From NCBI GenBank assembly GCA_027061995.1, contig JAMOUT010000057.1:65688-129687 (forward strand): a DNA stretch of 64,000 nucleotides. The letters run 5' to 3'. The position numbers and the translations under genes were made by a program. The DNA comes from Candidatus Aminicenantes bacterium (GTDB lineage Bacteria > Acidobacteriota > Aminicenantia > JAMOAD01). The notes below the pieces were generated by a model. The model worked only from the letters and a program-made list of their open reading frames with translations, searched no databases and was not told the DNA's origin. Position 1 is the stretch's first letter; each line of letters opens with the position of its first letter. This document shows, one piece after another, positions 3,125-59,059 of the stretch.

Positions 3125-3330
3125 TATTCTCCTCTTGTTTGAAGTTTTTGAAAATAAAAATTATCATATAAACAAACGAGTGTCAAACAATATTATAAAT
3201 ATCTCGGAAAATCAAATAATAACGGTATAAAAAAGAGTTGCGAATGTAAGGAGAATATTGTCTTTATAAATATTATTTAATGAGGACTAAGATCTCTTTA
3301 ATATTCTTTTCATTTTTAGTATAATCCTTT

Positions 3331-4296: not shown

Positions 4297-4299
4297 TTT

Positions 4300-24721: not shown

Positions 24722-25657
24722 ATGAGATTTAAAACATTGTTTTTTATTTTTATTTTTTTAATCTCCGTGGTTTTACTGAATTCTCGGGTTATGGTTCAAC
24801 TTCACAGTAAAGCTGTAATCAAATCCGATATTATATATATGAAAGATATTGCCTCCATTTATTCAAACTACAGTAATCTTAAGGATAAAGTGGAAAAAAT
24901 AATTATCTCGAAAGGGAAAAGTATTGATAGTGTTGATAGAAAAACAATTTATATGAAACTTATCAATAACGGGATAAACGGATTTAAAGTTGTTGGTGCA
25001 AAACAAGTTGAAATATTAAAAGGGAAAAAGAGAGTATCTAATTCTTTAATGAAAAAAAAGATAGAAAATTATATAAGATCTCGGTTCGGTTATGCTTCCG
25101 ATATTAAAATAATATATCAGAAAATCCCCGATATAAAACTTCCTTCGGGAGGTAAAATAGTTTTGCAAAGATATGGAAAAGGGTTTTCAAACTCCTATCT
25201 TCTGAAAGTGCTGTTAATTAAAAACGGTAAGATTATAAAACAGGATTTTGCACAAGTATATGTGAAAATTTGGGCGAAAATTCCTGTTGCGACTAAATTT
25301 ATCCGAAGGGGGAAGATATTAACGAGTAGTGATTTCAGATGGGAAATCAGGGAGATTAATTATGGAAATTATGATTTTGCTGGAAATTCATCCCAAATAA
25401 TAGGTAAAAAAGCTCTTTATTCCATAGGCTCGGGAAATGTTATAAGAAACAAGGTATTAAGTAACAAAATATCTGTAAAAAGAGGTGAAATTATAAGAAT
25501 AATGGTTAGAATGAATGGTATTAGCATATCTACCATAGGAAAAGCTTTAACTTCAGGTATTAAAGGACAGATGATTAAAGTTGTAAATCTGAAATCAAAG
25601 AAAAAACTTGAAGGTAAAGTTATAGGGGAAAATCTTGTGGAGGTATTCGTATTATGA
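24722..25657 (+). CDS. flgA: flagellar P-ring assembly chaperone FlgA
   Basis: 311 aa; signal peptide; C-terminal SAF-like segment GKALTSGIKGQMIKVVNLKSKKKLEGKVIGENLVEV; sits between flgG and flgH. Confidence 0.7.
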   Translation: MRFKTLFFIFIFLISVVLLNSRVMVQLHSKAVIKSDIIYMKDIASIYSNYSNLKDKVEKIIISKGKSIDSVDRKTIYMKLINNGINGFKVVGAKQVEILKGKKRVSNSLMKKKIENYIRSRFGYASDIKIIYQKIPDIKLPSGGKIVLQRYGKGFSNSYLLKVLLIKNGKIIKQDFAQVYVKIWAKIPVATKFIRRGKILTSSDFRWEIREINYGNYDFAGNSSQIIGKKALYSIGSGNVIRNKVLSNKISVKRGEIIRIMVRMNGISISTIGKALTSGIKGQMIKVVNLKSKKKLEGKVIGENLVEVFVL

Positions 25658-26283
25658 AAAAGACACTGTTTTTTATTATATTTTTATATGGTTCATTAAT
25701 ATTGTTTGCTCAAGATGCTCCTGGGCATAGAACTTCCCTTTGGGATAATTCAAAATCCCTTTTTAATGACCCTAAAGCAAAAGCAATAAATGATATAGTC
25801 ATAATAAAAGTAGAAGAAAGCACAAAAGCTGAAAATTCGGCGGAAACAAAAACCAAAAAAGGTTCTTCGAGTTCTCTCGGGATTAATACATTTTTGGGGT
25901 TTGAAAAATCTCTTGCGGGAAAAATGAATCCCAATTTTGACCCCACATCAATGTTCGGTCATAGTGTTTCAAAAAAAGATGAAGGGGCGGGCTCTACAAA
26001 ATCCACGACAAAGATTCAAGGATATATAGCCGCAAAAGTTGTTGAGGTGATACCGAACGGAAATCTTATAATAGAGGCGAAAAAAGAGATAATAGTTAAT
26101 AATGAAAAACAAACAATGATTTTACGAGGGATGGTGAGGCCGAGAGATATAGATTATAACAATTTTGTATCTTCAAATGCGGTTGCTGATGTTCAGATTA
26201 TGATAAAAGGTAAAGGAGCTGTTGCGGAACAACAGAGAAGAGGATGGTTATCATGGCTTTTAAGTATTGTTTGGCCGTTTTAA
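25654..26283 (+). CDS. flgH: flagellar L-ring protein FlgH
   Basis: 209 aa; signal peptide; SLWDNSKSLFND...AINDIVIIKVEES pattern characteristic of FlgH. Confidence 0.85.
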   Translation: MKKTLFFIIFLYGSLILFAQDAPGHRTSLWDNSKSLFNDPKAKAINDIVIIKVEESTKAENSAETKTKKGSSSSLGINTFLGFEKSLAGKMNPNFDPTSMFGHSVSKKDEGAGSTKSTTKIQGYIAAKVVEVIPNGNLIIEAKKEIIVNNEKQTMILRGMVRPRDIDYNNFVSSNAVADVQIMIKGKGAVAEQQRRGWLSWLLSIVWPF

Positions 26284-26294
26284 GGAGAGGAAAG

Positions 26295-27386
26295 ATGAAA
26301 AAAAGGATTTTACCTGTTATTTTTTTATTTATAACAATATCCTTAATCTCCATGGAAGTAAGATTAAAAGATATCTCAACTTTCGAAGGGGTCAGGGATA
26401 ATGAATTGATAGGTTATGGAATAGTTGTGGGGCTTAATGGAACAGGGGATACAACACAAAATAAATTTACATTTCAAGCCATAGCGAATATGCTTGATAA
26501 AATGGGAGTTACCGTGGATCCCAAACAATTTCAATTAAGAAATGTTGCCTCGGTTATGGTAACGGGAAAACTTCCGATGTTTGCAAGATCAGGTTCCAAA
26601 ATAGATGTAACTGTTTCCTCTATGGGTAGTGCCAAGAGTATTCAGGGGGGGATATTATTAATGACTCCGCTTAAAGCTGCAAACGGTCAGGTTTATGCGG
26701 TAGCTCAAGGCCCTGTATCAATAGGGGGATATAATGAAGGTGGTGGTGGCGGTAATGTTCGTAAAAACCATCCTACGGTCGGAATTATACCCGGAGGGGG
26801 AATCGTGGAAAAAGAGGTTCCTTTCTCCTTTTCAAATGAGGGATATTTGAATCTTTTACTTTATAATCCGGATTTTACAACAGCATCAAGGGTGGCTGAA
26901 AGAATTAACAGTGTTTTGGGATTAAAGAGCGCAAAAGCTCTTGATTCCTCCACGATAAAAATAGATGTCCCCCCCTCTTTCCGGGGAAAAACGGTGAAAC
27001 TTGCATCAGTTATAGAAAATATAAATATAACCCCTGATTCAAAAGCTGTTATCATAATAAACGAGAGAACGGGAACAATTGTATTCGGTGAAAATGCAAA
27101 GATAAGTAAAGTTGCAATAGCACACGGAAGCCTAACAGTGGCAATTCAAACTCAACAATTTGCCTCCCAACCTCCTCCGATGTCTGGAGGACAAACCGTG
27201 GTTATGCAAAATCAAAAAACGGATGTAACCGAAGAGCAAGCATCTTTTATGATGATGGAGGGGCCTACTGTCGGTGATTTGATAAAAGCTCTAAATTCCA
27301 TAGGAGCAACACCGAGGGATATAATAGCCATACTTGAAGCTATAAAAAGAGCTGGTGCCATTAATGCGGAGTTAAAGATAATATGA
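26295..27386 (+). CDS. flgI: flagellar P-ring protein FlgI
   Basis: RLKDISTFEGVRDNELIGYGIVVGLNGTGD. The internal Met MKKRIL at 26295 is preferred over the ORF-track start at 26244. Confidence 0.9.
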   Translation: MKKRILPVIFLFITISLISMEVRLKDISTFEGVRDNELIGYGIVVGLNGTGDTTQNKFTFQAIANMLDKMGVTVDPKQFQLRNVASVMVTGKLPMFARSGSKIDVTVSSMGSAKSIQGGILLMTPLKAANGQVYAVAQGPVSIGGYNEGGGGGNVRKNHPTVGIIPGGGIVEKEVPFSFSNEGYLNLLLYNPDFTTASRVAERINSVLGLKSAKALDSSTIKIDVPPSFRGKTVKLASVIENINITPDSKAVIIINERTGTIVFGENAKISKVAIAHGSLTVAIQTQQFASQPPPMSGGQTVVMQNQKTDVTEEQASFMMMEGPTVGDLIKALNSIGATPRDIIAILEAIKRAGAINAELKII

Positions 27387-28231
27387 GTATAGGATTCGGG
27401 AAAATTCCGGTAATAGATCCATTCCTTTTGACTAATCAATCGGAAAAACTGAATTCAGTGGATTTTTCCAAACTTTCGGATAAAGAGAAAAGAGCAAAAT
27501 TAAAATTAATAGCTTCTCAGTTTGAGGAGATTATGGTAAACACCCTTTTGAAAACTTCCACCGAAGCAAACAAAGTTTTCGCAAAAGGGGATAATGAGAA
27601 TTACGGATTGAATATGGGCTTTTATAAAGATATGAATAACTATTATTTAAGCCAAAGTATAGTGGCTGAAGGGGGGCTCGGACTTCAAGATCTTATCGTG
27701 GAACAATTGATGGACAAATTAAATATAAAAAATAAAAATATTGTAGATAAACAAAATAATAATTTAATAAAAAAGGGATTAAAGTTTAATCATGAAAAAT
27801 TATCTTTTTCTCAGCCTGTTAAAGGGAGAATATCATCGGATTTCGGTTGGAGAATAGATCCTTTTGACGGAAAAAAAAGGTTTCATAATGGGGTTGATAT
27901 AGCGGCTCCCGAGGGAACACCCGTCCAATCGGTTGAAACAGGGAAAGTTGTATTTGCAGGGAGAGAAAAAGGGTATGGAAATTTAATAATCTTAGAGCAT
28001 ATAAATGGTTATAAAACATATTATGCTCATTTAAAGGAGGTGAAAGTAAAAGAGGGTGATATAATAGGAAAAGACGAGATTATAGGTAATGTTGGGAAGA
28101 CAGGGAGAGCGACGGGTCCGCATCTTCATTTTGAAATCCGAAAAGGCAGATATGTTTTAAACCCCGAGGATAAGGTTTTATCTATTAAGTTTATGAAGAA
28201 TCTTCCGATAAAGAAAACGGATGGAGGTTAG
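27383..28231 (+). CDS. flgJ: FlgJ-like rod-binding domain fused to an M23 (LytM) peptidase
   Basis: The N-terminus SQFEEIMVNTLLKTS matches the rod-binding (FlgJ N-terminal) motif. The C-terminus HNGVDIAAPEGTPV...GYGNLIILEH...HLHFEI is an M23 metallopeptidase. Confidence 0.75.
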   Translation: MSIGFGKIPVIDPFLLTNQSEKLNSVDFSKLSDKEKRAKLKLIASQFEEIMVNTLLKTSTEANKVFAKGDNENYGLNMGFYKDMNNYYLSQSIVAEGGLGLQDLIVEQLMDKLNIKNKNIVDKQNNNLIKKGLKFNHEKLSFSQPVKGRISSDFGWRIDPFDGKKRFHNGVDIAAPEGTPVQSVETGKVVFAGREKGYGNLIILEHINGYKTYYAHLKEVKVKEGDIIGKDEIIGNVGKTGRATGPHLHFEIRKGRYVLNPEDKVLSIKFMKNLPIKKTDGG

Positions 28232-28545
28232 TGATGATAAAGATATTTAAAACAACCGATATTAAGAACAATGGAATAACCGATAAATCTGTAAAAGATT
28301 CCAAAAACAAGAATGATAATTTAAAAACGGGAAATTTTTTAAACCCGAACAATGATATAGTGGATATCTCAGGTCTGAGTGAAATTTTTTCCACTGCAAA
28401 AAAAGAGATGGAAAACATACCGGATATACGGGAAGATAAAATCAATCTTTTAAAACAAAAGATAGAAAACGGTGAATATAATATAGATGAAACCAAAGTA
28501 GCGGATAAAATTATAGAAAATCATATAATTGATGAACTTGTATAG
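28231..28545 (+). CDS. flgM: anti-sigma-28 factor FlgM
   Basis: 104 aa; C-terminal REDKINLLKQKIENGEYNIDETKVADKII matches the FlgM sigma-28 binding helix. Confidence 0.75.
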   Translation: MMIKIFKTTDIKNNGITDKSVKDSKNKNDNLKTGNFLNPNNDIVDISGLSEIFSTAKKEMENIPDIREDKINLLKQKIENGEYNIDETKVADKIIENHIIDELV

Positions 28546-28554
28546 AGGTAAAAC

Positions 28555-28875
28555 ATGTCTGATGTTGGAAAAGTTAGTAGAAATACACCGAAACCTTTTC
28601 CGACCATAAGAAAATCAAATGACCCTTTAAAACCTGAAACAGGTGAGGTCGAATTCTCCCAATATATGGCTGAAACGGATGAAATAAAGAGGAAAGTCGT
28701 TGAAAGTGCTGCGGAAACAGAAGGTTCCGTAATAAGAGAAGAAGAGAGAAGAAAAAAATTAAGATTAAAATCCAAAAAAAAGGATACTGAAGATGACAAA
28801 GAGATGGAAGAATATGAAACAGAAGGAGATGATGAAAATGATGATGAAGGAAAGATTGTGGATTTAGAGGTATAA
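28555..28875 (+). CDS. hypothetical highly charged protein (basic centre, poly-acidic tail)
   Basis: 106 aa; good RBS; no recognisable domain; C-terminal EDDKEMEEYETEGDDENDDEG. Confidence 0.5.
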   Translation: MSDVGKVSRNTPKPFPTIRKSNDPLKPETGEVEFSQYMAETDEIKRKVVESAAETEGSVIREEERRKKLRLKSKKKDTEDDKEMEEYETEGDDENDDEGKIVDLEV

Positions 28876-28876
28876 A

Positions 28877-29356
28877 ATGGAAGAAAAAATATTTAAAGAA
28901 TTGTATCTTTTTATGAAAGATTATTTGAAAGTTTTAATAGAATCTTATGAGGAGAGTTTAAATTTAAGAAAGATTTTAAGAGAGAATAAAATAGAGAGAA
29001 TTGAAAGAATGATTCCGAGAATAGAAAATTTTGACATTAAAATTAAGATGCTTGAAAATACAAAAAACAGTTTACTGTCAAAACTCGCTAAAGCACTAAA
29101 TATAAATGTCGGAAGCATAGATTGGGAACTTGTCGGAAACAGAGGGGGGAAGGAGATAGCAGAACTCGGTAAATTAATCGAAGAAAAAGTAAAGAATCTT
29201 GTAGATGCTAATATTGTGAATAAAATAATTATCGAAAGACTGATAATGTTTAACAGTTCTCTTCTTAATGTTATAAGAAATGACGGGGATTCATTATACA
29301 GTTCCGACGGTAATATTAACTCTTCTCATGAGAATTCGATGTTAGAGGAGGTTTGA
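28877..29356 (+). CDS. flgN: FlgN-like flagellar export chaperone
   Basis: 159 aa helical protein located between flgM and flgK (as yvyG/flgN in Bacillus); FlgN-like coiled-coil composition. Confidence 0.5.
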   Translation: MEEKIFKELYLFMKDYLKVLIESYEESLNLRKILRENKIERIERMIPRIENFDIKIKMLENTKNSLLSKLAKALNINVGSIDWELVGNRGGKEIAELGKLIEEKVKNLVDANIVNKIIIERLIMFNSSLLNVIRNDGDSLYSSDGNINSSHENSMLEEV

Positions 29357-29357
29357 T

Positions 29358-30797
29358 ATGGTAGGATTATTTAGTTCTCTTGAACTTGCTAAAAAGAGTC
29401 TTATGACTCATCAGTTTGTTTTTCATGTTATAGGGCATAATATAGCTAATGTTAATACACCTGAGTATTCAAGGCAAAGAGTTGAACTCGGAGTTGTCAG
29501 ACCTTTTCGACTCGGAGAAAGGACTGTTGGTGTTGGAGTTGATGTTCTCGGTGTTCATGGTGTCCGAGATAAATATCTTGAATACCAAATACAAAAAGAG
29601 GTTCAGGGAAGGGGTGAAGCTTCATATATGTCGGGAAGTTATAAAATAATAGAATCAATTTTTCAAGAACAAACGGATACCGGAATTTCAAAGATAATGG
29701 GGAATTTTTTTAATTCATGGAATGATTTAACCGTGAATCCGACGGGTCTTCCCGAAAGATCGACCGTTTTAAATAATGGTAAGGTTCTTGCGGACAAAAT
29801 AAAAGAGGCTTACAGAAGATTAAAGGAACAACAGGCGGTTGAAAACGGAGATGTTTCATCAATGGTAAAAGATATTAATGAGACCGGAAAGGAGATAGCA
29901 AAACTTAATATGGAGATAGCGAGCGGAGAAGCCGGCGGAGAAGAGATGAATGATTTAAGAGACAGAAGAAACAAACTTTTGCAGGATTTGGGAGAAAAAG
30001 TCGGAATTAATGTTTATGAAAATGAGATGCATCAGGTAACAGTTGAAATAGCTTCAAGACCTTTTATCGTTGGAAACAATTTAAATGAGCTTTCCGTTCA
30101 AAGGAATGCAAGCAATTCAAATTATTATGATATATATATTAATGAATCGGGTCATGTTGTGAATATAACCAATCAGATAGACGGTGGAGCAATGAAAGGT
30201 CTTATAACAATGAGAGATTCGAGAATCCCCGAATATCTGACAAAATTGGATAATCTTGCTTATGGTTTGATTACAAATGTCAACAATCTTCATAGCGGAG
30301 GGTTTGATTTAAACGGTAATACCGGAGTTAATTTTTTCACCCCCTTTGTTCCTACTACCCCCGGAGATTACACCGGAGCAGCCGCTCTTATTGAGGTAAA
30401 TCCCGCTATTGCATCTGATCCCGAAGCTGTTGCAGCTTCTTCTGTCGCGGGGGAAATCGGTAATAATACCGTAGCTCTTCAAATAGCTGATCTTGAAAGA
30501 GCGTATAATACGGTTGATAGTGATAATGACGGAACTTTTGATTATGGGACATTCCATGATTATTATCATCAACTTGTAACAAGTGTGGGAGCCGAGGCAT
30601 TAAACTCTTATACGAGAGAAACAGCGGAGGGCGAAATAATAACAAATCTTCAGGATAGAAGAAGTGAAGTCTCATCGGTTTCTCTTGATGAAGAGAGTGC
30701 CACACTTATTCAGTTTCAAAAAGCTTATCAAGTGATGGCAAGATTTATGGGGGTCGTGGATAAAATGACCGATATAATGATTAATCTCGGGAGGTAA
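29358..30797 (+). CDS. flgK: flagellar hook-associated protein 1 FlgK
   Basis: 479 aa; N-terminal HNIANVNTPEYSRQ and conserved C-terminal helix. Confidence 0.9.
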   Translation: MVGLFSSLELAKKSLMTHQFVFHVIGHNIANVNTPEYSRQRVELGVVRPFRLGERTVGVGVDVLGVHGVRDKYLEYQIQKEVQGRGEASYMSGSYKIIESIFQEQTDTGISKIMGNFFNSWNDLTVNPTGLPERSTVLNNGKVLADKIKEAYRRLKEQQAVENGDVSSMVKDINETGKEIAKLNMEIASGEAGGEEMNDLRDRRNKLLQDLGEKVGINVYENEMHQVTVEIASRPFIVGNNLNELSVQRNASNSNYYDIYINESGHVVNITNQIDGGAMKGLITMRDSRIPEYLTKLDNLAYGLITNVNNLHSGGFDLNGNTGVNFFTPFVPTTPGDYTGAAALIEVNPAIASDPEAVAASSVAGEIGNNTVALQIADLERAYNTVDSDNDGTFDYGTFHDYYHQLVTSVGAEALNSYTRETAEGEIITNLQDRRSEVSSVSLDEESATLIQFQKAYQVMARFMGVVDKMTDIMINLGR

Positions 30798-34074: not shown

Positions 34075-36648
34075 ATGATAAAAAGTTTAAACCTTGATCA
34101 AATCCCGATTATTTCAAAAACAATAATTGATATTTTTAAATATGAAAGAAAAAATCAGATAGAATTTTCTCAAACATTATCGGAGATTATTGCTAAAGAT
34201 CCAGGATTGTCATCTAAAATATTAAAATTTGCCAATTCCCCTTATTATGGGTTTATGGGGAAAATATCCACCGTTAGACATGCTATTAATCTCTTGGGAG
34301 TTGAAACAGTAAAAAACATAGTATTAAGGTCATCAATAACCGATATTTTTCTGAAACTTAAAAATGATAAAATATTAAAAAATATTTATACATATTTTCT
34401 GAAAAGGGGTTTAATTGCCGGTGTTGTTAGTAAAATATTGTGTGAAACACTTGGCTTGGGAACTCCGGAGAGTTTTTTGTTGAGAGGAACTTTACTTAAA
34501 ATCGGTAATATAGCTTTGATAATGAATTTTGAAGAAAAATATGATTTTGTTGTGGAAAAATTGTATGACAATGATTTATTAGACGAGGAAAGGAGAAGAT
34601 TCGGGACTGATTCTGTTGAAGTTGGTAAATACCTTGTTGAACAATGGAATTTCCCTTATGAATTCTATCAGTCAATTGACAACCACATTGAGATTAAAAA
34701 CAATGATTATATTTCAAAAGTTGCTTATATCTCAAATCTGTTTTCCGAATTATTGTTATTGAAGGATGAAACAAAAAGGGACCTATTGATGGATAGATTT
34801 AAAGTTAAATTAAAAGAGATATTTAATTTAAGCTTTTCGGATATAGATGTATTTAAAGGGGAGTTAGAGCTTGAAATAAAATTGTTTATAGAAGGTGCCC
34901 CCGAATTTAGTGATAATTGTAAAGAGGTGTTGGAGCTTTTCGATAATATACAGAAAAAACTTGTGGAAGAGATTAATGACCTCGAAGAGATTAATAAAAA
35001 ACTAAATAAATTGAAGAATCAAATTGCCTTGGAAAAAAAATACCTTAAACTAAATCTTAGATTCGCAAAAAGCTTATCATGGATTAGTGAACCTCAATAT
35101 CTTATAAACAAAATATTACATCAGATAAATTATTTAACTCAAAAAGCCGAAGCAAAATTTATATTTTGGGATATTAACTCAAAGCAATTTTATGCTTATA
35201 AATTAAATGATTCAAAAAATAATGTTTACATATATGATTTAAAAAAAGCTCCGCTTTATGAGAGAAGTTATAAATTAAGAGAGATTCAAATTAAAAATTT
35301 TGATGATAGTATATTGGTTGTTATCCCTGTCTTTTATGAAACAACATCCTATGGTATTATCCCGATTTTATTTGAAAATAAAAAAGATTATTCATCGGAA
35401 TTGATAAGTGCTATTGAGACAGCTGCAAATATTGTGGCTAATGCTTTTAATAATTATTATTCAAATGAGAGGGTAAAAAAAGAGATAATAAAAAAATATG
35501 TAATGTTTGATGAAATTAAAAACGGGATGTTTAATAATCAGAGGATGAAAGAGATAATAAAAGAACTGCAATTGTATAATATTCACAAATATATATTAAG
35601 AAGTATTATACATAAATTAAATAATAAATTAACACCGGTGATAGGGTATGCTCAGATGATTGAGGGAAAATCCGCAGATGAAAAGATGAATGAGAGAGTT
35701 TCGATAATAAGGAAAAATTCGGATGAAGTGGTTCAAATCTTAAATCGTTTATTTGAGCAATTCTCAGCTCCTGTTCTTCAAAAAGAGATTATTAATCTGA
35801 ATATGTTGATTAAAGAGAAGATACAATTGATAGATTATAAGATAAAAGAGGAGGGGATTAAAGTTGAATTTGAACTTGAAAACGGATTGCCGGATATATA
35901 TTTTTCAAGGGTTCAACTTGGAGATGTAATAATGAATCTGATTGTGAATTCAATTGAAGCTGTGGAACGGACAGATAAAGCTGAGAAAAGACTAAAGGTG
36001 AAAACCTATTATGATTCCCTGAATTTTTATATTGAGGTTAGTGATAATGGGGTAGGGATAGATGAAAAGATACAGGAAAAAATATTCGAACCGTTTTTTA
36101 CAACTTATGATAATAAAAACGGATTAGGGTTAAATTTTGTTCATGGTTTTGTTAATGCAAATCAGGGTTCAATAGATATAAAAAGTAAAGTTGGGGTCGG
36201 AACAACAATAACAATATCTTTTTATGCGAAAACCATTAAACAACCTAAGAAAGAAAAAATAGATAAGGGTAATTTTAAAATATTGATTGTGGATGATGAA
36301 GAGAGTTTGGTTGAATTACTTACCGAATTTTTGAATTATGAGGGATTAAACAATATAAGCACGGCAAAAGACGGAGAGAAAGCTATTAATTTGATTAAAA
36401 AGAATCAATATAATCTTATTATTACCGATATAAGGATGCCGAAAGTATCAGGAATAGAGCTTTACAGGTGGTTGAAGAGTGAGAAAAAAGATGTTGATGT
36501 GATTTTTATAACAGCTGAGATTTCTTCGGAAGAATTGAATAAAATTATTAATAATGATAAAATCCCGATATTACAAAAACCTTTCTCCTTAATGGAATTT
36601 ACAGGGTTGATTTATGAATTTATAAGTAAGAAATATATGGAGGTATAA
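34075..36648 (+). CDS. hybrid sensor histidine kinase: HDOD domain, coiled coil, HisKA/HATPase and a C-terminal receiver
   Basis: 857 aa. HDOD-like N-terminus ([16 protein letters not shown]...[18 protein letters not shown]); H-box [19 protein letters not shown]; N/G boxes ([38 protein letters not shown]); REC (KILIVDDEE...ITDIRMP...FITAE...QKPF). Confidence 0.75.
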
Positions 36649-43402: not shown

Positions 43403-45316
43403 CTATGAAAGATTTATACCGCTAAAATTACTTTGCAGACTCTGTAATAATTGCTGCATCTGTGCCATAGCCCTGTTTGCCGCATCAAATTCCTGAAATA
43501 ATCGTTGTCTCTCATCTTCAAGTTGATCTTTAAAAGATTCTATCTTCTCATTTATAGTTTCAATGTTTTTATCAAGATTATTTAACTCTTTTACCAATTG
43601 ACCTTCATTATTGATGTCAGTGCTCATTAATGATTCAAGTTTGTTATTTAAATTGGAAACAACACCATAACTCAATTGAACATTACCAAATGAACCGGAG
43701 GAACTCATTGTTCCGTATATTTTAAGACCTTTTACAGGACCTTCTGTCCCGGTTAGAGTTCTTCCTTCTCCGGTAGCTGCGTATCCTCCGATTGTGCCTG
43801 CTATATCTGTTCCCGTATCTGTCAATGCTGTTGTTCCTACTCCAGTGCCATTTGCGGTGGCTGCAATATCGGATACAACGGATAATGTTTCTGATGATCC
43901 GTAATTATCTGTTTCAAAAACAAGATAGTTTCCGTTGCTTGTCGCTGTAATCGGGATATTATTATCATCCATTTCAGTATTTATTTTATCCATGATATCG
44001 GTTAGAGTGTCATTTTCGGAAAGATTAACAGTGTAATTTTTTGATTTATATGTTATGGTAAGTGTCTCATCCTGAGCAATACCTCCCGAAGGAACCTCTT
44101 CACTTCCTTGAACTTTGGCGATTTCAGCCGCTTGAGTTATATTCACAGAATAAGTTCCCGCTTGAGTATCTTCTGTCCTTAAAAGGTATGTAACATTATC
44201 ATTGGTGGTAGAGCCTATTTCCTCAAACACTTTTTTTACACCTTGGTAATCATTTTGCAAGGCTGTTTCAAGTTTGTCGGTATCAAGATATATGGTTCCG
44301 TCATTGTTCATTTTGATTCCGATATCGATTAATGATTTATAGGTATCAGAGCTATTACTCCCTTCAATTTGTGATGTTATCATGGATTGGATGGAAGATT
44401 GAACCGAAAGAGCGGCTGAATTACCTGACAAAATTCCCGCTTTGCCCGCTGCTGAATTATATGTGAATTGTTTATTAAGATAACCGATGATATCATTATA
44501 TTTGGAGATAAAATCATTTAATTTTGATTCGACATTGGAAAAATCGTTAGAAATCTTGAGAGTGACGGTTTTACTTGCATCAGCCTCTTTTAAATTAAGG
44601 GTAACTCCTTCAATTACATCTGAGATTGTATTTGATGATCTTGTTATTGCATCACCCGCATCCGTTGTATTAACATTTATAAGAGCATCTTGGGCGGAAA
44701 TCTTTTCAGTCATATTTGTTCCTACGCTTGAATCGGATATTGTAAAAGCATAATCACTACCTGTTTCGGTTGAAGTGATTTGTAATTTATAATCCGAACC
44801 ATCATAGATGATAGTTGCTCTGACATCAAGCTCATCAAGATTATTAATCGCATCCCTTAAACCCGTTAAAGAGCGGGTATCACCCGTTATATCAATATTT
44901 TTGGTTTTTCCGTTTTGTGTTATTGAGAAAGTTGTTCCATCAGTCAGAACATTATCACTCGGTGATGAAAAACCATCCGAGGAATCGGATTCCACGGTGG
45001 CAAGTTGACGAACGATTATATAATAATCTCCGTTTTGAGCGCCGCTTTGGGTTGTCGCGGTTAATATATCTTCATTTGATACGGAGGCTGAGCCTGTTGA
45101 GATAGAATCAAAATTTGCCAAATTTTCCGAAACAGATTGAAGTGATGATACTTTGGTGTTTAGTGTTTGAAGAGCTTTTTTCTCGGCTTCATAATTATAT
45201 ATCTCATTTTGATAGGTGTTTAAAGGATAGCTTTTAGCATAAATTATTTTATTAACAAGATCATTTACATCAAGCGGTCCTGCCGCAAACATGCCGCTAT
45301 AAATAGAGCTATCCAT
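43403..45316 (-). CDS. fliD: flagellar filament cap protein FliD
   Basis: 637 aa; conserved N-terminal and C-terminal FliD helices; the N-terminus resembles the HAP2 N-terminal domain. Confidence 0.85.
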   Translation of the reverse strand: MDSSIYSGMFAAGPLDVNDLVNKIIYAKSYPLNTYQNEIYNYEAEKKALQTLNTKVSSLQSVSENLANFDSISTGSASVSNEDILTATTQSGAQNGDYYIIVRQLATVESDSSDGFSSPSDNVLTDGTTFSITQNGKTKNIDITGDTRSLTGLRDAINNLDELDVRATIIYDGSDYKLQITSTETGSDYAFTISDSSVGTNMTEKISAQDALINVNTTDAGDAITRSSNTISDVIEGVTLNLKEADASKTVTLKISNDFSNVESKLNDFISKYNDIIGYLNKQFTYNSAAGKAGILSGNSAALSVQSSIQSMITSQIEGSNSSDTYKSLIDIGIKMNNDGTIYLDTDKLETALQNDYQGVKKVFEEIGSTTNDNVTYLLRTEDTQAGTYSVNITQAAEIAKVQGSEEVPSGGIAQDETLTITYKSKNYTVNLSENDTLTDIMDKINTEMDDNNIPITATSNGNYLVFETDNYGSSETLSVVSDIAATANGTGVGTTALTDTGTDIAGTIGGYAATGEGRTLTGTEGPVKGLKIYGTMSSSGSFGNVQLSYGVVSNLNNKLESLMSTDINNEGQLVKELNNLDKNIETINEKIESFKDQLEDERQRLFQEFDAANRAMAQMQQLLQSLQSNFSGINLS

Positions 45317-45328
45317 TATTACCTCCTT

Positions 45329-45844
45329 TTATATGTTTTCATTAATGAAAACACCTTTTAAATTATCTCCTTTGGACATATATTCTCTGTTATTATTAAG
45401 TTTATCATTTTTCTGATTGATTTTGTAGAGCTCCACTATAAATTTATAAAACTCTTCGGGTGGTATCTGTCTGATAACCTTTTTTGTCTTTTTATCAAGA
45501 ATCTTAATGAGATTTCTTTTTGTAATTTTGTCCTTTTCAAATTTTAGTTCGGTATTTTCAAGGTTATTAAGTTTTGCATTTAATTTTTCCAGATTTTCAT
45601 TAAGAGGTTTGTTTTTGTCAAACGGTGTTTTTTCTTTATTGTTTAATTGAATCGGATTATCGGTGGACTTTATTTTGTCATTATCATTTTTGAAGATTTC
45701 GACCACATCGGAATTATCCGAAGAATTGCGATCTCTGTATATTTTAGAAGAAGAATCGGAAGTATCGGGAGGGGAGATTTGTTCCCCTCCCTTATTAAGT
45801 ACAGATAGTTCTTTATATTCTATATTTCCGGTTGTAACAAGCAT
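45329..45844 (-). CDS. flaG: flagellar protein FlaG
   Basis: 171 aa; C-terminal KVIRQIPPEEFYKFIVEL matches the FlaG family; positioned between flagellin and fliD. Confidence 0.75.
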   Translation of the reverse strand: MLVTTGNIEYKELSVLNKGGEQISPPDTSDSSSKIYRDRNSSDNSDVVEIFKNDNDKIKSTDNPIQLNNKEKTPFDKNKPLNENLEKLNAKLNNLENTELKFEKDKITKRNLIKILDKKTKKVIRQIPPEEFYKFIVELYKINQKNDKLNNNREYMSKGDNLKGVFINENI

Positions 45845-45889
45845 TTTTCACCTCTCTTAAAAATAAAGAGAGTCAGTGTTCGTTAAATA

Positions 45890-46723
45890 TTACCTGAACA
45901 ACCCTAATACCATCTGTGAAGAAGCGTTTGCCTGTCCGAGTGATGCCATACCACTTTGTAGCAATATCTGGAATTTGGTTAAGTTAACCATCTCCTGAGC
46001 CATATTAGCATCTCTGATAATTGACTCAGCACCTTTCAGGTTGATTGCCTGTGTGTTGATAATAGCGATTGAGTTCTGTAATCTGTTTGATTGTGCTCCG
46101 AGGACACCTCTCCATCTTGAGATAGAAGTTATGGCATTTCTTATCTCTGTTAAAGCTGATTGTGCTCCTGATGCAGTGCTCAAACTGCTTGTCAAACCAA
46201 GAGAACTTGTTGTCGCAGCTCCACCGATTGACAAAGTGATTGTGCTTTGAACATGTGTGTCTCCGACAAAGATTGTTTTTTGAACCGCACCTGAAGAACT
46301 GAAAAGATGTTCTCCCTTAAAGTTAACGGAACTGAAAACTCTGTCGATTTCAGCTTTAATTTGGCTATACTCGGTGTCGATTGTTTGTCTTTCGGTAGCA
46401 CCGACTGTTCCTGATGCTGATTCTTCGGCAAGTGTTACGGCTCTGTTTAAAAGATCGGTAACTTTTGCTAAAGCTCCATCAGCAATCTGGATGATACCGG
46501 ATGCATCATTTGCATTCCTGTAAGCTTGGTTCAGAGCATAGACATCAGCTTTTAAAAGGTTAGCAATAGCAAGACCTGCCGCATCATCTCCGGCATCAAC
46601 AATACGATAACCGGATGAAATTCTTGCGATAGTCTTGTTCAAACCGATGTTTGAAGAATAAAGATTTTGCTGTGCATACAGCGATGAAACATTAGTGATA
46701 ACACTAAAAGATTGTGCTCCCAT
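45890..46723 (-). CDS. fliC: flagellin (short, Hag-like, no hypervariable D2/D3 domain)
   Basis: 277 aa from the internal Met with a GGAGGAGG SD. N-terminal RISSGYRIVDAGDDAAGLAIA; C-terminal LGAQSNRLQ...SIIRDANMAQEMVNLTKFQILLQ...ASSQMVLGLFR. Confidence 0.9.
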   Translation of the reverse strand: MGAQSFSVITNVSSLYAQQNLYSSNIGLNKTIARISSGYRIVDAGDDAAGLAIANLLKADVYALNQAYRNANDASGIIQIADGALAKVTDLLNRAVTLAEESASGTVGATERQTIDTEYSQIKAEIDRVFSSVNFKGEHLFSSSGAVQKTIFVGDTHVQSTITLSIGGAATTSSLGLTSSLSTASGAQSALTEIRNAITSISRWRGVLGAQSNRLQNSIAIINTQAINLKGAESIIRDANMAQEMVNLTKFQILLQSGMASLGQANASSQMVLGLFR

Positions 46724-46750
46724 AAAGCACCTCCTCCATAAGGTTTTTTC

Positions 46751-46764
46751 GGGCATCCATGCCC
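46751..46764 (-). promoter_or_regulatory. 5' UTR hairpin with GGA in the loop (candidate CsrA binding site 1); the SD GGAGGAGG at 46730-46737 is a second GGA site
   Basis: Minus-strand RNA gggcaUGGAugccc: 5-bp stem with loop UGGA, and CAUGGAUG resembles the CsrA SELEX motif. It lies 20 nt upstream of the SD. Confidence 0.5.
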
Positions 46765-53764: not shown

Positions 53765-54895
53765 ATGAGAAAAGGATTAACAATTATTTTGGTTGTATTT
53801 TTTGTTTTAGCAAGTCTTTCTAATGGTAATAATCTGAAAAAAGAAAATCTCCGACTTGGTTATAAGGAGATAAAAGTTGAAATTAATGAGAATATTGAGA
53901 CATTAAGCTTGATATATAGCCTTGCTGATGATGAGTTGATTAATGTTGATTTTGCCGAAAAAGCTCATCTGCTAAAACATTATTTAAAAGAGTTTGAAAA
54001 ATTTAAAGATCATCCAGCGGTTAAAAAAATGAAATTTCTTCTGAAAAAGGAGATATTTGGTGCTTCATGTGTTACATACGGACTTTTTTATACTGATTTC
54101 CCCGAATTTAAAGAAAAATATCCTTTTGATTTTTCAGTTTATAAAAAAGAGGAAAAAAATCAATTATTGGAGTTTTATCAATTAGCCAGAAAATTTTATA
54201 AAGATGTGAAATTATCAAAATTTTTTATAAAACACCATACAGTATATGAAAGAATAAAAAATGAAGTAAAATCCGTTTTACCTTCGAACTCTTATATAAA
54301 AACATTGGAAAAATTTCACGGAATATCAATGTTAGATTATGTAATAATTCCTTCGATTTTTGTTCCTAATTATTTTAATTACGGACCAACCATAAAAACC
54401 CGAAAAGGGATTATCAATTATTATGTGATGGGTCCCGCTTACGATGTAAATATTAAATCCGGAGTGAAATTACCGGACAAATTGGGTTTTAATGCCAAGA
54501 GTTATATTTTTTCAATCGGAATACATGAATTCGGGCATACTTTTGTTAGATTTATTGATAAACCGAAAAATGCACGACTTATAAATTCCATATCGTATTT
54601 AAATACGGAAGAATTAAGAAAAAAGATTTACCCTCAAGGATATGGTAATTGGAAAGGGGTTTTTGAGGAACATCTTGTAAGAGTTTGTGAGATAGAGATA
54701 GCAAAAATGATGAACAACGAAAAATATAGCAAAATATTATATGAAGATAATGTAATCAAAAGAGGGTTTAAATATATTCCGTATATTCTTGATATAATCC
54801 CCCAATATGAAAAAAACAGAGACAAATATAAAACTTTTGAAGAATTTTTTCCATTAATTATAAAAAAGTTATCCGAGGTTAAAATTAAAAGATAA
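53765..54895 (+). CDS. secreted putative zinc metallopeptidase (HEXXH)
   Basis: 376 aa; signal peptide; HEFGH motif at SIGIHEFGHTF; no other recognisable family signature. Confidence 0.45.
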   Translation: MRKGLTIILVVFFVLASLSNGNNLKKENLRLGYKEIKVEINENIETLSLIYSLADDELINVDFAEKAHLLKHYLKEFEKFKDHPAVKKMKFLLKKEIFGASCVTYGLFYTDFPEFKEKYPFDFSVYKKEEKNQLLEFYQLARKFYKDVKLSKFFIKHHTVYERIKNEVKSVLPSNSYIKTLEKFHGISMLDYVIIPSIFVPNYFNYGPTIKTRKGIINYYVMGPAYDVNIKSGVKLPDKLGFNAKSYIFSIGIHEFGHTFVRFIDKPKNARLINSISYLNTEELRKKIYPQGYGNWKGVFEEHLVRVCEIEIAKMMNNEKYSKILYEDNVIKRGFKYIPYILDIIPQYEKNRDKYKTFEEFFPLIIKKLSEVKIKR

Positions 54896-54920
54896 ATCCT
54901 GATACAAAAAATAATTTGAA

Positions 54921-55145
54921 TTAATTATAGTATATTGTAAATTTGCATTTTTCAATATTAATCTCAATTTTTTTTATCTCTGTTAACAAGACATTCAGAT
55001 ATAAAATATCATATTCTCCCTCAGTATTAGTGTCGATATGTTTAACTTTTTCAATTGAGATTATTATATCGGAAGTCATTATTTTGTAGGAATTATTATA
55101 TATAAATACTAATAAAATAATAATATATATACTATGTTTTTTCAT
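54921..55145 (-). CDS. small secreted protein with a DxNxEGxxD loop; internally deleted paralog of 57428-57844
   Basis: 74 aa; shares its signal peptide, ISIEKVKHIDTNTEGEYDILYLNVLLTE and C-terminal KFTIYYN with the 138-aa paralog; the middle ~60 aa are missing. Confidence 0.5.
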   Translation of the reverse strand: MKKHSIYIIILLVFIYNNSYKIMTSDIIISIEKVKHIDTNTEGEYDILYLNVLLTEIKKIEINIEKCKFTIYYN

Positions 55146-55263
55146 ATATATATAATATTAATTATTATATATATCAAATATACTTTTTGTAAAAAAACAA
55201 AAACTAAAAAAGTATAAAAATATATTAATGTGTTAATTTGATTTTGCAGTAAAAAAACAGAAA

Positions 55264-55449
55264 TTAATCTATATTCTTTTTTAATAATTCGGAAGCTATT
55301 TTTTTTATTTTGTTGACATTATCCGCCGAATCTTCTATTGTAGCTGCTTCCTTCTTTGTGATTTTGCTCTTTTCTGCTAATTTTATTCGGCCCTCAAGCC
55401 CTAATTCATTCTCAACTATCTTAAAAATTGATAATATCTTATCGCCCAT
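55264..55449 (-). CDS. hypothetical 61-aa protein
   Basis: Strong RBS GGAGGAATAATATG; helical, Lys/Glu-rich; last gene of the REC-Roadblock operon. Confidence 0.45.
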   Translation of the reverse strand: MGDKILSIFKIVENELGLEGRIKLAEKSKITKKEAATIEDSADNVNKIKKIASELLKKNID

Positions 55450-55468
55450 ATTATTCCTCCGTTTAAGG

Positions 55469-55843
55469 TTAATTACCTACAATAGCTTCTTCAAAAGCAG
55501 ATGTTATCTTAGGTAAAATAATGCTTAAAAGCATTCCCAAAGGAACCTCTCTTGTATCAATCACCATACCCCATTGAAATTCACCAAGTGGCATAACTAT
55601 TAGTGCTTTGTCGTCAACAAGGTCTAATAAATAATATTTATTCAAAGCCGGAAACTTTGCTCCGTCAAGAGCTTTTTTAACATATTCCGTAATTTTACCG
55701 AATAAGGCGCAACCTTCGGGGCTACTGTTATAAGCGACAATAGGTTGTAAATCTTTTGATGAATAGATATCAGTTCCAATTAACCCTTGACCTGTCTCTT
55801 TTTTCAAGAGCTCCATTGCTTCTTTTAGCTTTTTTACATTCAT
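55469..55843 (-). CDS. Roadblock/LC7 (MglB-like) domain protein
   Basis: 124 aa. GQGLIGTDIYSSKDLQPIVAYN and ALIVMPLGEFQWGMVIDTREVPLGMLLSI fit the Roadblock profile (G.kGvvlvd.dG..ia / ilvv..g...l.vv.d...nlGlv). Paralogous to the C-terminal domain of the adjacent REC protein. Confidence 0.55.
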   Translation of the reverse strand: MNVKKLKEAMELLKKETGQGLIGTDIYSSKDLQPIVAYNSSPEGCALFGKITEYVKKALDGAKFPALNKYYLLDLVDDKALIVMPLGEFQWGMVIDTREVPLGMLLSIILPKITSAFEEAIVGN

Positions 55844-55852
55844 TTTTTCCTC

Positions 55853-56920
55853 CTATGATTTAAGATTTTTTATTTTTATTTCCTTTGTAATTTTCGGAAG
55901 TATGATATTTAAAAATAAGCCGAGTTGAATTTTTGAAATATCTATGGTCATTCCTAATAAATAATTATTGATAGGAGAAATGATTATTATTATGAATTTT
56001 CCGGAATTAATCAAATAATAATCTCCCAAATGAGTATCCAAATATTTTGATAATTCTTTGTTAATCAATGAAGTTAATGATGAAAAATCCTTATAAGAGC
56101 CCTCGTCTATATTATATTGAAAGATAGAGGAGTTGTCTGATAATGATATTAATTCGGCATTAATTATGGAATCATCTAAATCATCTTTAAATTTTTCAAA
56201 GAATTCATGAAAAACTTTTGTATCTGAATTATTATTGTTACTATTATTATTATTGTTGTTTTCATCTATTTTTCTTACAGTTTCCAAAATACCGAATTCA
56301 ATAGGAATTGAAACATCATCGTTTTCCTCTATATAGGGTGTTTCCGTAAAAATATAATCATCTAATTTCTGAATTTCTTCCAATGCTTCCAATCCTTCCA
56401 ATTTGCCGAATTTACATTTTTTTAAAAATCCGTTTTTAACATTGATGATTCCATTTCCTTTTTTGGATTTTATTGATATTGAAGTTTTCTTATTGGAATA
56501 TTTTAAAATTTGTAGTAATGTCATTATGTCAATGTTAATTTGTGCTATATTATTTTCTTTGTTTTTTAATGATTTCTCGATTAAATTCTCCAACCTGTCT
56601 ATTGAGAATGGTTTTTCAAGAAGGTATTGTATTCCGAGAGATAAAAGCTCTTTATTATACATCATAGAGGGGAATCCCGTTATAACAATGAATTTTTTAC
56701 CGGGGAATTTTTTCAGAACTTCTCTTATAAATTGAATACCATCCATTTCAGGCATATTGATATCTACTATGAATAAATCGATTTTTTTGATATTAATGCT
56801 TTTTAATGCTTTTAAAGGTGAATTAAATATTATTATTTCATAACGATTATTTAAACTGTCTTTAAGAAGTTTTAACAAATTTTTGTCATCATCTAAAATT
56901 AAGATATTCTTTTTTTTCAT
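55853..56920 (-). CDS. response regulator: receiver, poly-Asn linker, Roadblock/LC7-like output domain
   Basis: 355 aa from the internal Met MKKKNILILDDD (an ATG at 57025 is unlikely). The REC has DDD, phospho-Asp IVDINMP, T (IVITG) and K (EKPF). The linker is NNNNNSNNNNSD. The C-terminus KFIIIIISPINNYLLGMTIDISKIQLGLFLNIILPKITKEIK parallels the 124-aa protein. Confidence 0.65.
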   Translation of the reverse strand: MKKKNILILDDDKNLLKLLKDSLNNRYEIIIFNSPLKALKSINIKKIDLFIVDINMPEMDGIQFIREVLKKFPGKKFIVITGFPSMMYNKELLSLGIQYLLEKPFSIDRLENLIEKSLKNKENNIAQINIDIMTLLQILKYSNKKTSISIKSKKGNGIINVKNGFLKKCKFGKLEGLEALEEIQKLDDYIFTETPYIEENDDVSIPIEFGILETVRKIDENNNNNNSNNNNSDTKVFHEFFEKFKDDLDDSIINAELISLSDNSSIFQYNIDEGSYKDFSSLTSLINKELSKYLDTHLGDYYLINSGKFIIIIISPINNYLLGMTIDISKIQLGLFLNIILPKITKEIKIKNLKS

Positions 56921-56939
56921 AATTCTTTTGCCATAACAA

Positions 56940-56971
56940 CTTATGTTATAAAAACTAATTCTTTTTGTCAA
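56940..56971 (-). promoter_or_regulatory. sigma-70-like promoter (TTGACA-17nt-TAACAT) upstream of the REC-Roadblock operon
   Basis: Minus strand acTTGACAaaaagaattagtttttaTAACATaagttgttatggcaaaagaattATG. Confidence 0.35.
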
Positions 56972-57427
56972 GTAAAATCGACCCTCCCCGTGGAAATAGC
57001 ATAAGCAATGCATGATAGAGGACAAAGTTGTTAAATTGAAAAAAAAAATAAATTGGATAAAACATAATATAATAATCTTGGTATTATTGTCGGAGATTAC
57101 GAGTAAATTTCTAATGGTATTAAATCTTAAAATAAATTATAAAAAGGTAAACACTATGCTTTAGTAAACCGCTGGAATAGACATTGTGGTATGGAAAACA
57201 CAATAATATATTTTTCAGTATAAAGAGTTTTTCATTTGAGTTAAATAAGGAAGGGATAACGCGGACATATGATTAACTAATACAAAAAGTTGTGTTTTTA
57301 TAGATTATAAACTTGATGCAACCCTTGTATCATCAAAGAGTGAAAATGAAACATACGGGATTATGGTGGAGGGATTATTTATAAAAGAGTGAAATGCCAT
57401 AATCATAATTTAAATGTTATAACAGAA

Positions 57428-57844
57428 TCAAATTTTTATCTTTTTTGAATTCTTATAAGATTTTCCGTTTGAATTATAGTATATTGTAAATTTATATTTT
57501 GATGATTTTCTATTATTATATCTAAGGTTAATTTTTATATTTGTAAAAGTATAAAGCCCGAAACCTGTAATTTTATAAACGGGAGGATTGTTCTCCGCAT
57601 ATTTGTAAATAAGTGTATCATTAGAATCATATACCTCATTCATATATTGTTCGATATTAAGATCAAGACCTTTTGTTTCTGTTAACATGACATTCAAATA
57701 TATAATATCATAGCGACCATCACCGTTCGTATCAACATATTTAACTCTTTCAATTGAGATAAGGAGGTCGGGAGTTGTTTTCTTATCACACTTATTGTAT
57801 AAAAACATTAACAAGATAATAATAAATACACTATATTTTTTCAT
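57428..57844 (-). CDS. small secreted protein with a DxNxDGxxD calcium-binding-loop motif
   Basis: 138 aa; signal peptide; DTNGDGRYD matches the EF-hand/dockerin-type Ca loop; full-length paralog of 54921-55145. Confidence 0.55.
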   Translation of the reverse strand: MKKYSVFIIILLMFLYNKCDKKTTPDLLISIERVKYVDTNGDGRYDIIYLNVMLTETKGLDLNIEQYMNEVYDSNDTLIYKYAENNPPVYKITGFGLYTFTNIKINLRYNNRKSSKYKFTIYYNSNGKSYKNSKKIKI

Positions 57845-57973
57845 ATATTTATTATATTAATAGTTTTGTTTAATATCAAGGGGAATTTGTAAGAATTAAA
57901 TATTAGTTGACAAAATCAGATATTATGTTTAAAATACATAAATTAAAGCTTTAAATTTGCTGGAGGTTTATTT

Positions 57974-59059
57974 ATGAAAAAGAAAAATTCTGTTTTGATT
58001 GTGATGTTATTAGCTTTAGCTTTCTATTTAATTATGCCTAATATGATTTATGCAAGCGAAGCTACTTCTTATTTGGCTTTTATTGATGCCACAACAAATT
58101 ATAGTGCAATGGTTAGAGCAAAAAAACCGGGGGAAGAGATAAAAGCGGCTCAAGCTAAAATGATAGCAGCCGGAGAAAAATATATAAAAAAATATGAAGA
58201 CAAGGTTCCTGTGAATACATCTATTATATTGCAAAATCTTGTTCTTGTTTTTTATAATTTAAAAAAATATGATAAGGTGATCTATTACGGAGAAAAATTA
58301 GCTAAAAAACCCGGATTAAAAGATATTCAAAAGGCAAGTTTATTTCTTTTTCTTGCCGATTCATATATTTCAACGGGTAAAGATTATAAAAGAGGTGTTG
58401 ATTTTGCAGAAGGGATTGAACTTATTGTCAATAATAATATAAACACAAGCACGGGTTTGCAAAAGAAAAGATGGCAGAATTTATTAGGGCAAGCGTTGAG
58501 ACTCAAAGGAAATGTATTTTATATTAAAAAAGATTATGATAATGCGGTTGCTAATTTTATTAAATCATATAATAATTATCCTTCTATGAGAACGCTAAAA
58601 GTCATAAGAGAAATCGGAAGAAAATATTTTAAACAAAAGCAATACAAAAAAGCACTCGGAGTGTTTGAATTTGCATACAAAGAGTTAAGTAAAAAATCAC
58701 CGAAAAGAGCTCAGGAGTGTTTGAAACTTCTTGGTAGAACTTATTCAAAACTTGGAATGATAGATAAGGCCATACAAACATTTTCAAAACTTTATTCAAA
58801 GAGGAAAAATGCTGAATTAGCTTATAGAATCGGGGCTTTGTATAACAAGAAATTTAAACAATCAGGTGGAAAGGATAAATCATTTCTTGAAAAAGCAAAA
58901 CTTTATTGGGCTGAATCAGTTGTTTTAAAATCACCGGCTCTTTATTCAAAACAAGCGGAAAAAATTCTGAAAAATTATATGATAAGTATGGAAAAAGCCA
59001 CTCTTCAGGAGTATGAAGATATTTTAAAAGTAGCTAAAAAAAGATTAGGTTTGATTTAA
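57974..59059 (+). CDS. secreted TPR-repeat protein
   Basis: 361 aa; signal peptide; helical repeats with TPR-like spacing (e.g. YDNAVANFIKSYNNYP, AIQTFSKLYSKR). Confidence 0.5.
   Translation: MKKKNSVLIVMLLALAFYLIMPNMIYASEATSYLAFIDATTNYSAMVRAKKPGEEIKAAQAKMIAAGEKYIKKYEDKVPVNTSIILQNLVLVFYNLKKYDKVIYYGEKLAKKPGLKDIQKASLFLFLADSYISTGKDYKRGVDFAEGIELIVNNNINTSTGLQKKRWQNLLGQALRLKGNVFYIKKDYDNAVANFIKSYNNYPSMRTLKVIREIGRKYFKQKQYKKALGVFEFAYKELSKKSPKRAQECLKLLGRTYSKLGMIDKAIQTFSKLYSKRKNAELAYRIGALYNKKFKQSGGKDKSFLEKAKLYWAESVVLKSPALYSKQAEKILKNYMISMEKATLQEYEDILKVAKKRLGLI

Follow-up and report, generated by a model that had tools for sequence, protein, structure and literature searches.

The stretch of DNA analysed here, 64,000 nucleotides (nt) from a Candidatus Aminicenantes bacterium and hereafter called the window, raises the question of which kind of signalling device is encoded by a compact operon on its minus strand and whether this operon stands alone or belongs to a larger family. 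An open reading frame (ORF) listing returns five minus-strand ORFs between 54921 and 57844, just as an earlier note on this DNA, made from the letters only, had described. Three of them form the operon: a response regulator of 355 amino acids (aa; RR, 55853-56920 with its ATG at 56920), a free protein of 124 aa (X, 55469-55843) and a small helical protein of 61 aa (S61, 55264-55449), while the fused copy of X at the C-terminus of RR is designated X'. We show that the operon is an orphan, split-gene variant of an uncharacterised family whose members combine a PATAN domain, with or without a preceding receiver (REC), with a C-terminal X domain and are accompanied by S61 homologues, in short the (REC)-PATAN-X family. 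Membership is evident from hidden Markov models (HMMs): the X-family HMM scores 174 bits for X and 87 bits for X', and the S61 HMM scores 107 bits.

The three genes are tightly and translationally coupled. The stop codon TAG of RR overlaps the Shine-Dalgarno (SD) sequence AGGAGG of the X gene (55849-55855, minus strand, read directly as tcaTAGGAGGaaaaaATG), which is located 5 nt before the ATG of X, and the S61 gene follows the X gene after a gap of 19 nt with GGAGG ahead of its own ATG. Close orthologues of the operon are confined to four lineages, with four full-length RR orthologues of 63-100% identity, and the trio RR-X-S61 is conserved in this window clade. An Rfam scan of 54700-58100 gave no match, and the operon strand shows no convincing intrinsic terminator.

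RR starts with a CheY-like receiver (aa 6-114, 56579-56905; Pfam PF00072, Response_reg, E 1.1e-20) in which the acid pocket D10/D11/D12, the phospho-acceptor D53, T81 and K103 are all present, so that the complete receiver seen in the earlier note is borne out. In an alignment of five orthologues these residues are invariant with the exception of D12. The same note had joined this receiver directly via the linker to the C-terminal domain and had overlooked about 100 aa between receiver and linker, which represent a PATAN domain (DUF4388, PatA_N; approximately aa 125-217, 56270-56548). Pfam PF14332 aligns to RR with model positions 7-121 of 122 at E 0.002 and 18.6 bits, which is under the gathering score of 25 bits, and RR aa 115-217 are matched with E 2e-17 by a profile that was derived from the N-termini of 15 relatives without REC. 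Three of those relatives (P0151, P0170 and P0141) were looked up and are annotated with PF14332. Among 95 longer relatives, PF14332 is found in 59 (E≤1e-3) and REC in 37. The AlphaFold2 (AF2) model of the PATAN region consists of a helix and strands with a predicted local distance difference test (pLDDT) score of 62-81. Taken together, the Pfam match, the N-terminal profile and the annotated relatives lead to the architecture REC - PATAN - linker - X'.

The linker (aa 221-231) is a poly-Asn segment and its imperfect (AAC/AAT)n tract is located at 56228-56260, in agreement with the earlier reading. This tract had also been proposed as a site of length variation, and such variation exists: a second assembly (L029, Logan SRR7968104) is 99.92% identical to the window over 5.3 kb with one mismatch and one gap, and this sole indel is one AAC of the poly-Asn tract (approximately 2190-2200 of L029), yielding an RR of 354 instead of 355 aa. 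Since the tract encodes an inter-domain linker whose length is variable in orthologues, a regulatory role of its length variation is unlikely.

The C-terminal domain X' (aa 233-350, 55871-56224) was correctly recognised as a paralog of the adjacent 124-aa protein, as BLASTP aligns RR aa 233-345 to X with 30% identity and E 2e-14. To which fold both copies belong was addressed by modelling. X has a predicted Roadblock fold: its model, built from a six-sequence alignment, matches the α-β-β-α-β-β-β(-α) Roadblock topology according to two independent structure-comparison methods, and the structures of LAMTOR2/LAMTOR3 (p14/MP1) and of the C-terminal domains of RagA/RagC are found among its matches (ranks 7-12). 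The X' part of the AF2 model of RR has the same topology as X at low pLDDT (33-67), and a YYL motif (YY-L) on the predicted edge strand β3 is conserved in both copies. At the sequence level this resemblance leaves no trace. Nothing usable was obtained from Pfam or NCBIfam for X (no match at E≤1), S61 or the two flanking proteins of 74 and 138 aa described below, and S61 as well as the 138-aa protein also gave no match in the Protein Data Bank (PDB). The profile check with PF03259 (Robl_LC7) that had been suggested for the RR C-terminus and the 124-aa protein gave no match in Pfam, and none of the 95 longer relatives matches this family at E≤1e-3. Searches of PDB sequences with phmmer and with profiles of X, even one of 50 sequences, retrieved no Roadblock protein, while hhalign of the X-family alignment against MglB from a related locus (L027) gave a probability below 1% and no signal against the second Roadblock-like protein of that locus. 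Thus, of the Roadblock/LC7/MglB pattern proposed in the earlier note the predicted fold stands, but no sequence profile detects Roadblock in X.

The window operon is by no means a one-off. An exhaustive profile search with X reveals 429 cluster representatives (50% identity) at E≤1e-3 and 312 at E≤1e-10. X is always found either as a standalone protein of about 122 aa or at the extreme C-terminus of a longer protein, and the longer proteins (95 examined) mostly show the architecture PATAN-X or REC-PATAN-X. Among the matches listed, the closest genome record is a Candidatus Aminicenantes metagenome-assembled genome (MAG) with an X of 93% identity, and MAGs that carry further members are labelled as Aminicenantes, Acidobacteriota, Anaerolineae, Clostridia and Flavobacteriales. 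Gene contexts were taken from loci labelled L001 and so on, including those of locus scans with a narrower alignment, which yielded at least 16 genome loci and at least 13 metagenome loci; these scans used an N-terminal MN[VI]KKL pattern, so that the sampling is biased to X domains starting with Met. In the libraries and literature searched, neither the X family as Roadblock-fold PATAN fusion, nor its S61 partner, nor the pattern of tethered and free copies described in the following was found.

The arrangement of a divergent fused X' with a standalone X gene directly behind it is found in the window clade and in one further clade. The latter comprises L005/L015, L017, L019-L021, L024-L026, L049 and L052-L054 with MAGs labelled Flavobacteriales; its fused protein consists of a Lys-rich, apparently disordered N-terminus and a very divergent X' (24-47 bits), and REC, PATAN and S61 are missing there.

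How single-copy members might obtain a second X protomer is suggested by a signal at the border of the X domain. All 15 single-X fusion ORFs from 14 lineages (L013, L014, L016, L018, L022, L023, L027, L030/31, L034, L036, L037, L038, L039 and L041) possess an in-frame ATG at position 1 of X (M-N-[VI]-K-K-L) and all 15 carry GGAG, GAGG or AGGA 4-16 nt upstream of it, a count to be read with the caveat that retrieval by MN[VI]KKL requires a Met start. Examples are aaAGGAGGttttaaaATG in L016 and aaAGGAGagcaaaATG in L038. The signal is present too in L030, L034, L036-L039 and L041, which were reached by other routes than this pattern. As background, 100 of 1262 other in-frame internal ATGs in these loci (7.9%) have such a motif. 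Met occupies the X border in 53 of 89 long representatives, with K at position -4 in 24 and E at position -3 in 33 of these, a pattern that corresponds to the codons AAG GAG. X domains of the signal-bearing lineages share no more than about 30-55% identity with the X of the window, and their linkers are unrelated. In paired loci, ATG and SD motif are both missing from all 13 fused X' copies, behind which X is encoded by a gene of its own (compare window 55841-55855). Other bacterial genes are known that make two products from nested starts.

The internal-start pattern together with the conserved gene pairing indicates that fused and free copies may work together, and suggests that a tethered X protomer and a free one are both required by the module. 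This lends independent, if indirect, support to the heterodimer considered in the earlier note. The simplest reading of these sequence patterns is that single-copy genes would supply free X by internal initiation and the window clade by a separate gene.

The third component is similarly persistent. In about 13 lineages the next gene behind the one containing X encodes an S61 homologue of 61-67 aa, and this also applies to REC-less PATAN-X genes (L034, L037, L039 and L047). In L022 and L023 the S61 module forms the N-terminus of a 158-aa protein. The homologues contain a helix-turn-helix (HTH)-like stretch, LAEKTGIS. In L039 (7253-7609) S61 is followed by a 118-aa protein with a weak match to the X profile (E 2e-4), which may represent a third arrangement, with PATAN-X and S61 followed by another Roadblock-like protein. 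In L032/L033 (8001-9754) and L016 (10381-12197) an S61 homologue is the first of a conserved set of small genes, whose other products are a 173-aa protein with a weak V4R-like match, a protein of about 208 aa and a protein of about 100 aa. In L032/L033 there is no X-domain gene near this set, and therefore S61 may be a more general adaptor. A further observation concerns L013, where a haem-NO-binding (HNOB) protein (10435-10956, E 2.5e-39) directly follows REC-PATAN-X at the position where S61 is expected, which hints at gas sensing feeding the module in one Aminicenantes lineage.

With which partners these proteins communicate can be approached from the gene contexts. The link between Roadblock proteins and small GTPases that had been stated in the earlier note is real in relatives: REC-less PATAN-X genes directly follow the gene of an MglA-type GTPase in L027, L034 and L036, and in L027 both mglB and mglA lie immediately upstream of PATAN-X (MglB E 3.5e-9 to 6izw_B, MglA E 9e-57 to 3t12_A). 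In L014, a GC-rich Aminicenantes MAG, the X gene is followed at a distance of about 2 kb by a run of genes (3188-6137) for an MglA-like GTPase, a Robl_LC7 protein and a Ser/Thr kinase of 613 aa. The position typical of MglB, within about four genes of an mglA-type GTPase, is found in L027, L034 and L036 and not in the window, where phmmer with MglA-like and MglB-like queries detected no such protein among the ORFs of at least 40 aa over the full 64 kb, so that the statement that no GTPase gene is adjacent holds for the entire window. As neither a GTPase nor a kinase gene is adjacent, RR is an orphan.

Kinase genes are frequent in the neighbourhood of the receiver-containing relatives. A HisKA/HATPase kinase and an NtrC-type sigma-54 regulator adjoin REC-PATAN-X in L013, L018, L022, L023 and L030, as would be expected if one kinase served two regulators, and a hybrid kinase is present in the X-gene context of L038. 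In the window a hybrid kinase with N-terminal HDOD, HATPase_c and C-terminal receiver is encoded at 34075-36648 (plus strand); it is possible but unsupported as partner of the orphan RR. Flagellar genes are confirmed at 24722-30797 (plus strand) and 43403-46756 (minus strand), including those for the FlgA chaperone, FlgI P-ring protein, FlgK, FliD and flagellin. The earlier note had connected the operon with motility via these genes 9-30 kb away; the genes themselves are real, but the connection is one of proximity and relatives do not show such linkage.

From these data we propose, with a probability of about 0.5, that the operon codes for an orphan response regulator whose output is protein interaction and not DNA binding (REC, PATAN, linker and X'), together with X and S61, and that it controls a nucleoside triphosphatase (NTPase) of a polarity or motility system. 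X' would pair with free X via the usual Roadblock dimer interface (helix α2 and edge strand β3 with the YYL motif) to form an asymmetric dimer of one tethered and one free protomer, with S61 probably bound. Phosphorylation of Asp53 by an unlinked histidine kinase would then alter the engagement of the target NTPase by PATAN and X'/X. By analogy, the target could be an MglA-type GTPase, proposed because the PATAN-X genes of relatives adjoin mglB-mglA, or a motor or secretion ATPase as in the case of cyanobacterial PATAN proteins. The output would consist in post-translational control of a polarity or motility machine and not in transcription. A precedent for a dimer with non-equivalent protomers is the asymmetric binding of the MglB dimer to MglA in a 2:1 ratio, as described in PMC11016934.

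Several points weigh against this proposal. The homology of X to Roadblock proteins depends on a model from the above-mentioned six-sequence alignment, the X' region of the RR model is of low confidence (pLDDT 33-67), and Pfam, NCBIfam, the 50-sequence PDB profile and hhalign against MglB all fail to provide a link at the sequence level. Within the 64 kb of the window there is neither an MglA-like GTPase nor MglB nor a cognate kinase, the HDOD hybrid kinase being the only kinase among the scanned ORFs and 18 kb off. Contexts vary by lineage and linkage to a GTPase is seen in 4 of about 20. Finally, the REC-less PATAN-X gene of L039 lies beside a GAF-sigma54 activator and a PAS kinase without any GTPase; this case also weakens the idea of a strict complementarity of receiver and GTPase inputs.

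The pairing of X' with X could be questioned in the first place. Many Roadblock proteins are homodimeric, including MglB, MglC and LC7, and thus X' and X might each homodimerise separately, giving an RR dimer held by X' in addition to X2, with the internal ATG and SD motif as a mere relic of gene fusion. That X' is far more divergent than X (87 versus 174 bits) and that standalone X genes without a fused neighbour exist (L043 and L045) would be in line with this. On the other hand, SD and ATG have been kept in 14 diverged lineages and are missing exactly where a separate X gene exists, which disfavours a relic, and the genes of RR and X are so tightly coupled in translation that co-assembly is favoured, so that we consider separate homodimers unlikely. 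It could also be that X and X' do not act as NTPase-regulating dimers at all. As α/β sandwiches with GAF, profilin and longin domains as kin they might be sensors of small molecules or peptides, and free X would then be an independent sensor or a competitor; to us this appears very unlikely.

A transcriptional output would fit the neighbours of REC-PATAN-X genes, the commonest of which are just the histidine kinase and NtrC-type regulator described above (L013, L018, L022, L023 and L030), to which the GAF-sigma54 activator of L039 can be added. PATAN-X and S61 might therefore act on an enhancer-binding protein of the NtrC type by modulating its AAA+ ATPase; alternatively, S61 with its LAEKTGIS stretch might be a small HTH DNA binder. 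In either case the window copy would have moved away from a kinase/NtrC pair. Against this, the surroundings of the window operon revealed no gene of a sigma-54 activator, searches of Pfam, NCBIfam and the PDB gave no match for S61, and a shared kinase would explain the adjacency of kinase and regulator genes equally well. A sigma-54 promoter for RR was searched for and rejected: with 15 matches versus 12 expected the count is at chance level, and the only match upstream of RR (57317-57332) has two mismatches and breaks the GG. Control of a sigma-54 activator is thus quite unlikely, and control of a polarity or motility NTPase remains the reading that we prefer.

Parts of this picture are already published, namely the PATAN domain, receiver-PATAN regulators and the neighbourhood of PATAN genes to mglA/mglB (bioRxiv 10.1101/2021.06.11.447907 and PMC4316618, the latter citing Makarova 2006 for the neighbourhood). 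Proteins with DUF4388 (PATAN) number more than 8000, and most of them are annotated with no other domain or with a receiver only (bioRxiv 10.1101/2021.06.11.447907). Among the closest described systems are PatA, PixG and PixE from cyanobacteria, which likewise contain a receiver and PATAN/DUF4388 and whose output is a protein-protein interaction, as PATAN domains from Synechocystis bind the pilus ATPase PilB1 (bioRxiv 10.1101/2021.06.11.447907). Their domain order is PATAN-REC, in contrast with the reversed order REC-PATAN-X in RR, and PatA-type proteins have not been described with a C-terminal Roadblock-like domain or with free X and S61.

MglB and MglC from Myxococcus and Thermus show no detectable sequence similarity to X, and no mglA is present in the 64-kb window. 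They also differ in organisation, since here the domain is fused to REC-PATAN, exists both in a divergent tethered form and in a free form, and is accompanied by a conserved partner of 61 aa. A functional analogy might be seen in the RomR/RomX/MglC-MglB system of Myxococcus xanthus, where a receiver protein, Roadblock proteins and a small helical adaptor control a small GTPase; these are separate, unrelated polypeptides, whereas RR unites REC, PATAN and the Roadblock-like domain in one chain. In the conservons (CvnA-D) of actinobacteria a small GTPase and a Roadblock protein are coupled to an input resembling that of two-component systems (PMC4316618), and their set of four genes (histidine-kinase-like CvnA, Roadblock CvnB, DUF742 protein CvnC and GTPase CvnD) is not found at the window operon: neither a CvnA-like kinase nor a DUF742 protein nor a GTPase is adjacent, and the X family is a different and unannotated one. 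In eukaryotes the paralogous Roadblock domains of LAMTOR2/LAMTOR3 and RagA/RagC, the same structures that match the X model, form obligate heterodimeric GTPase platforms, but the likeness to X is restricted to the fold, the partners and the biology differ, and a heterodimer in the present case is what we infer.

The operon is flanked by two further minus-strand genes which the earlier note had recognised as diverged paralogs on the same strand. This is correct. Upstream lies the gene of a full-length, lipoprotein-like protein of 138 aa with the motif DTNGDGRYD (57428-57844), and downstream that of a truncated paralog of 74 aa (54921-55145); both proteins are 59% identical over 66 aa (E 2e-27). 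A direct repeat of 227 nt with 74% identity (54947-55173 and 57646-57872) covers a promoter-like region, with the sites TTTACA-18-TATAAT and TTGATA-17-TATAAT, and the 5' coding part, and a second shared stretch of 29 nt with 93% identity is located near the 3' end. The spacing of the two repeats (2699 versus 2549) differs by 150 nt, which means an in-frame deletion of 50 codons in the 74-aa copy; the internal deletion claimed earlier is thus present, yet it is smaller than the suggested 60 codons or so. The 74-aa copy furthermore stops 14 codons earlier, no longer has the Cys of the lipobox position, and its DxNxDGxxD motif, a putative Ca loop conserved in the full-length copies, is degraded to DTNTEGEYD.

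Outside the window clade only L001-L003 contain the 138-aa gene, in each case as a single full-length copy downstream of S61 (the copy in L001 is 75% identical to the 138-aa protein of the window); it is absent from L009 and no copy is present in the stretch of L012 covered. The synteny in L001-L003 indicates that the 74-aa gene probably occupies the ancestral position and is decaying there, with the 138-aa gene upstream of the operon as a lineage-specific duplicate. The pair is therefore a lineage-specific duplication, as judged from sequence and gene order, and is situated outside the conserved module. The alternative of a cassette boundary, which had also been considered, fails on the same synteny, with a single copy downstream of S61 in L001-L003 and none in L009.

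The neighbours of the operon in the window encode a DUF4932 protein, a TPR protein, a sulfotransferase-like protein, TopA and LigA. One border is formed by the secreted DUF4932 protein (53765-54895, plus strand, convergent) and the other by the TPR protein with a signal peptide (57974-59059, plus strand), whose gene is divergent from the 138-aa gene. The borders in L001 are different and comprise a Sortilin/BNR protein and a GGDEF protein.

As to the meaning of these findings, a wider interpretation can be formulated, which we regard as tentative and, taken as a whole, rather doubtful: the entire family might represent a switch-controlled, asymmetric Roadblock-like dimer, with a tethered and a free protomer always required, supplied in most members by one gene with an internal start and in the window clade by a split gene, and with receiver and MglA inputs being interchangeable. 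The window operon would then be a GTPase-independent, phosphorylation-driven counterpart of MglA/MglB in a flagellated Aminicenantes-like bacterium. The family itself offers two natural comparisons, one between internal start and split gene as ways to obtain tethered and free protomers and another between receiver and GTPase as input of the switch. Pfam-style models of X and S61 would improve the annotation of hundreds of metagenomic proteins. A sizeable subset of PATAN proteins carries an unannotated domain of predicted Roadblock fold together with a dedicated partner of 61-67 aa, and this provides a structural hypothesis for the link of PATAN to GTPase switches of the MglA/MglB type, which hitherto was known from gene neighbourhoods alone.

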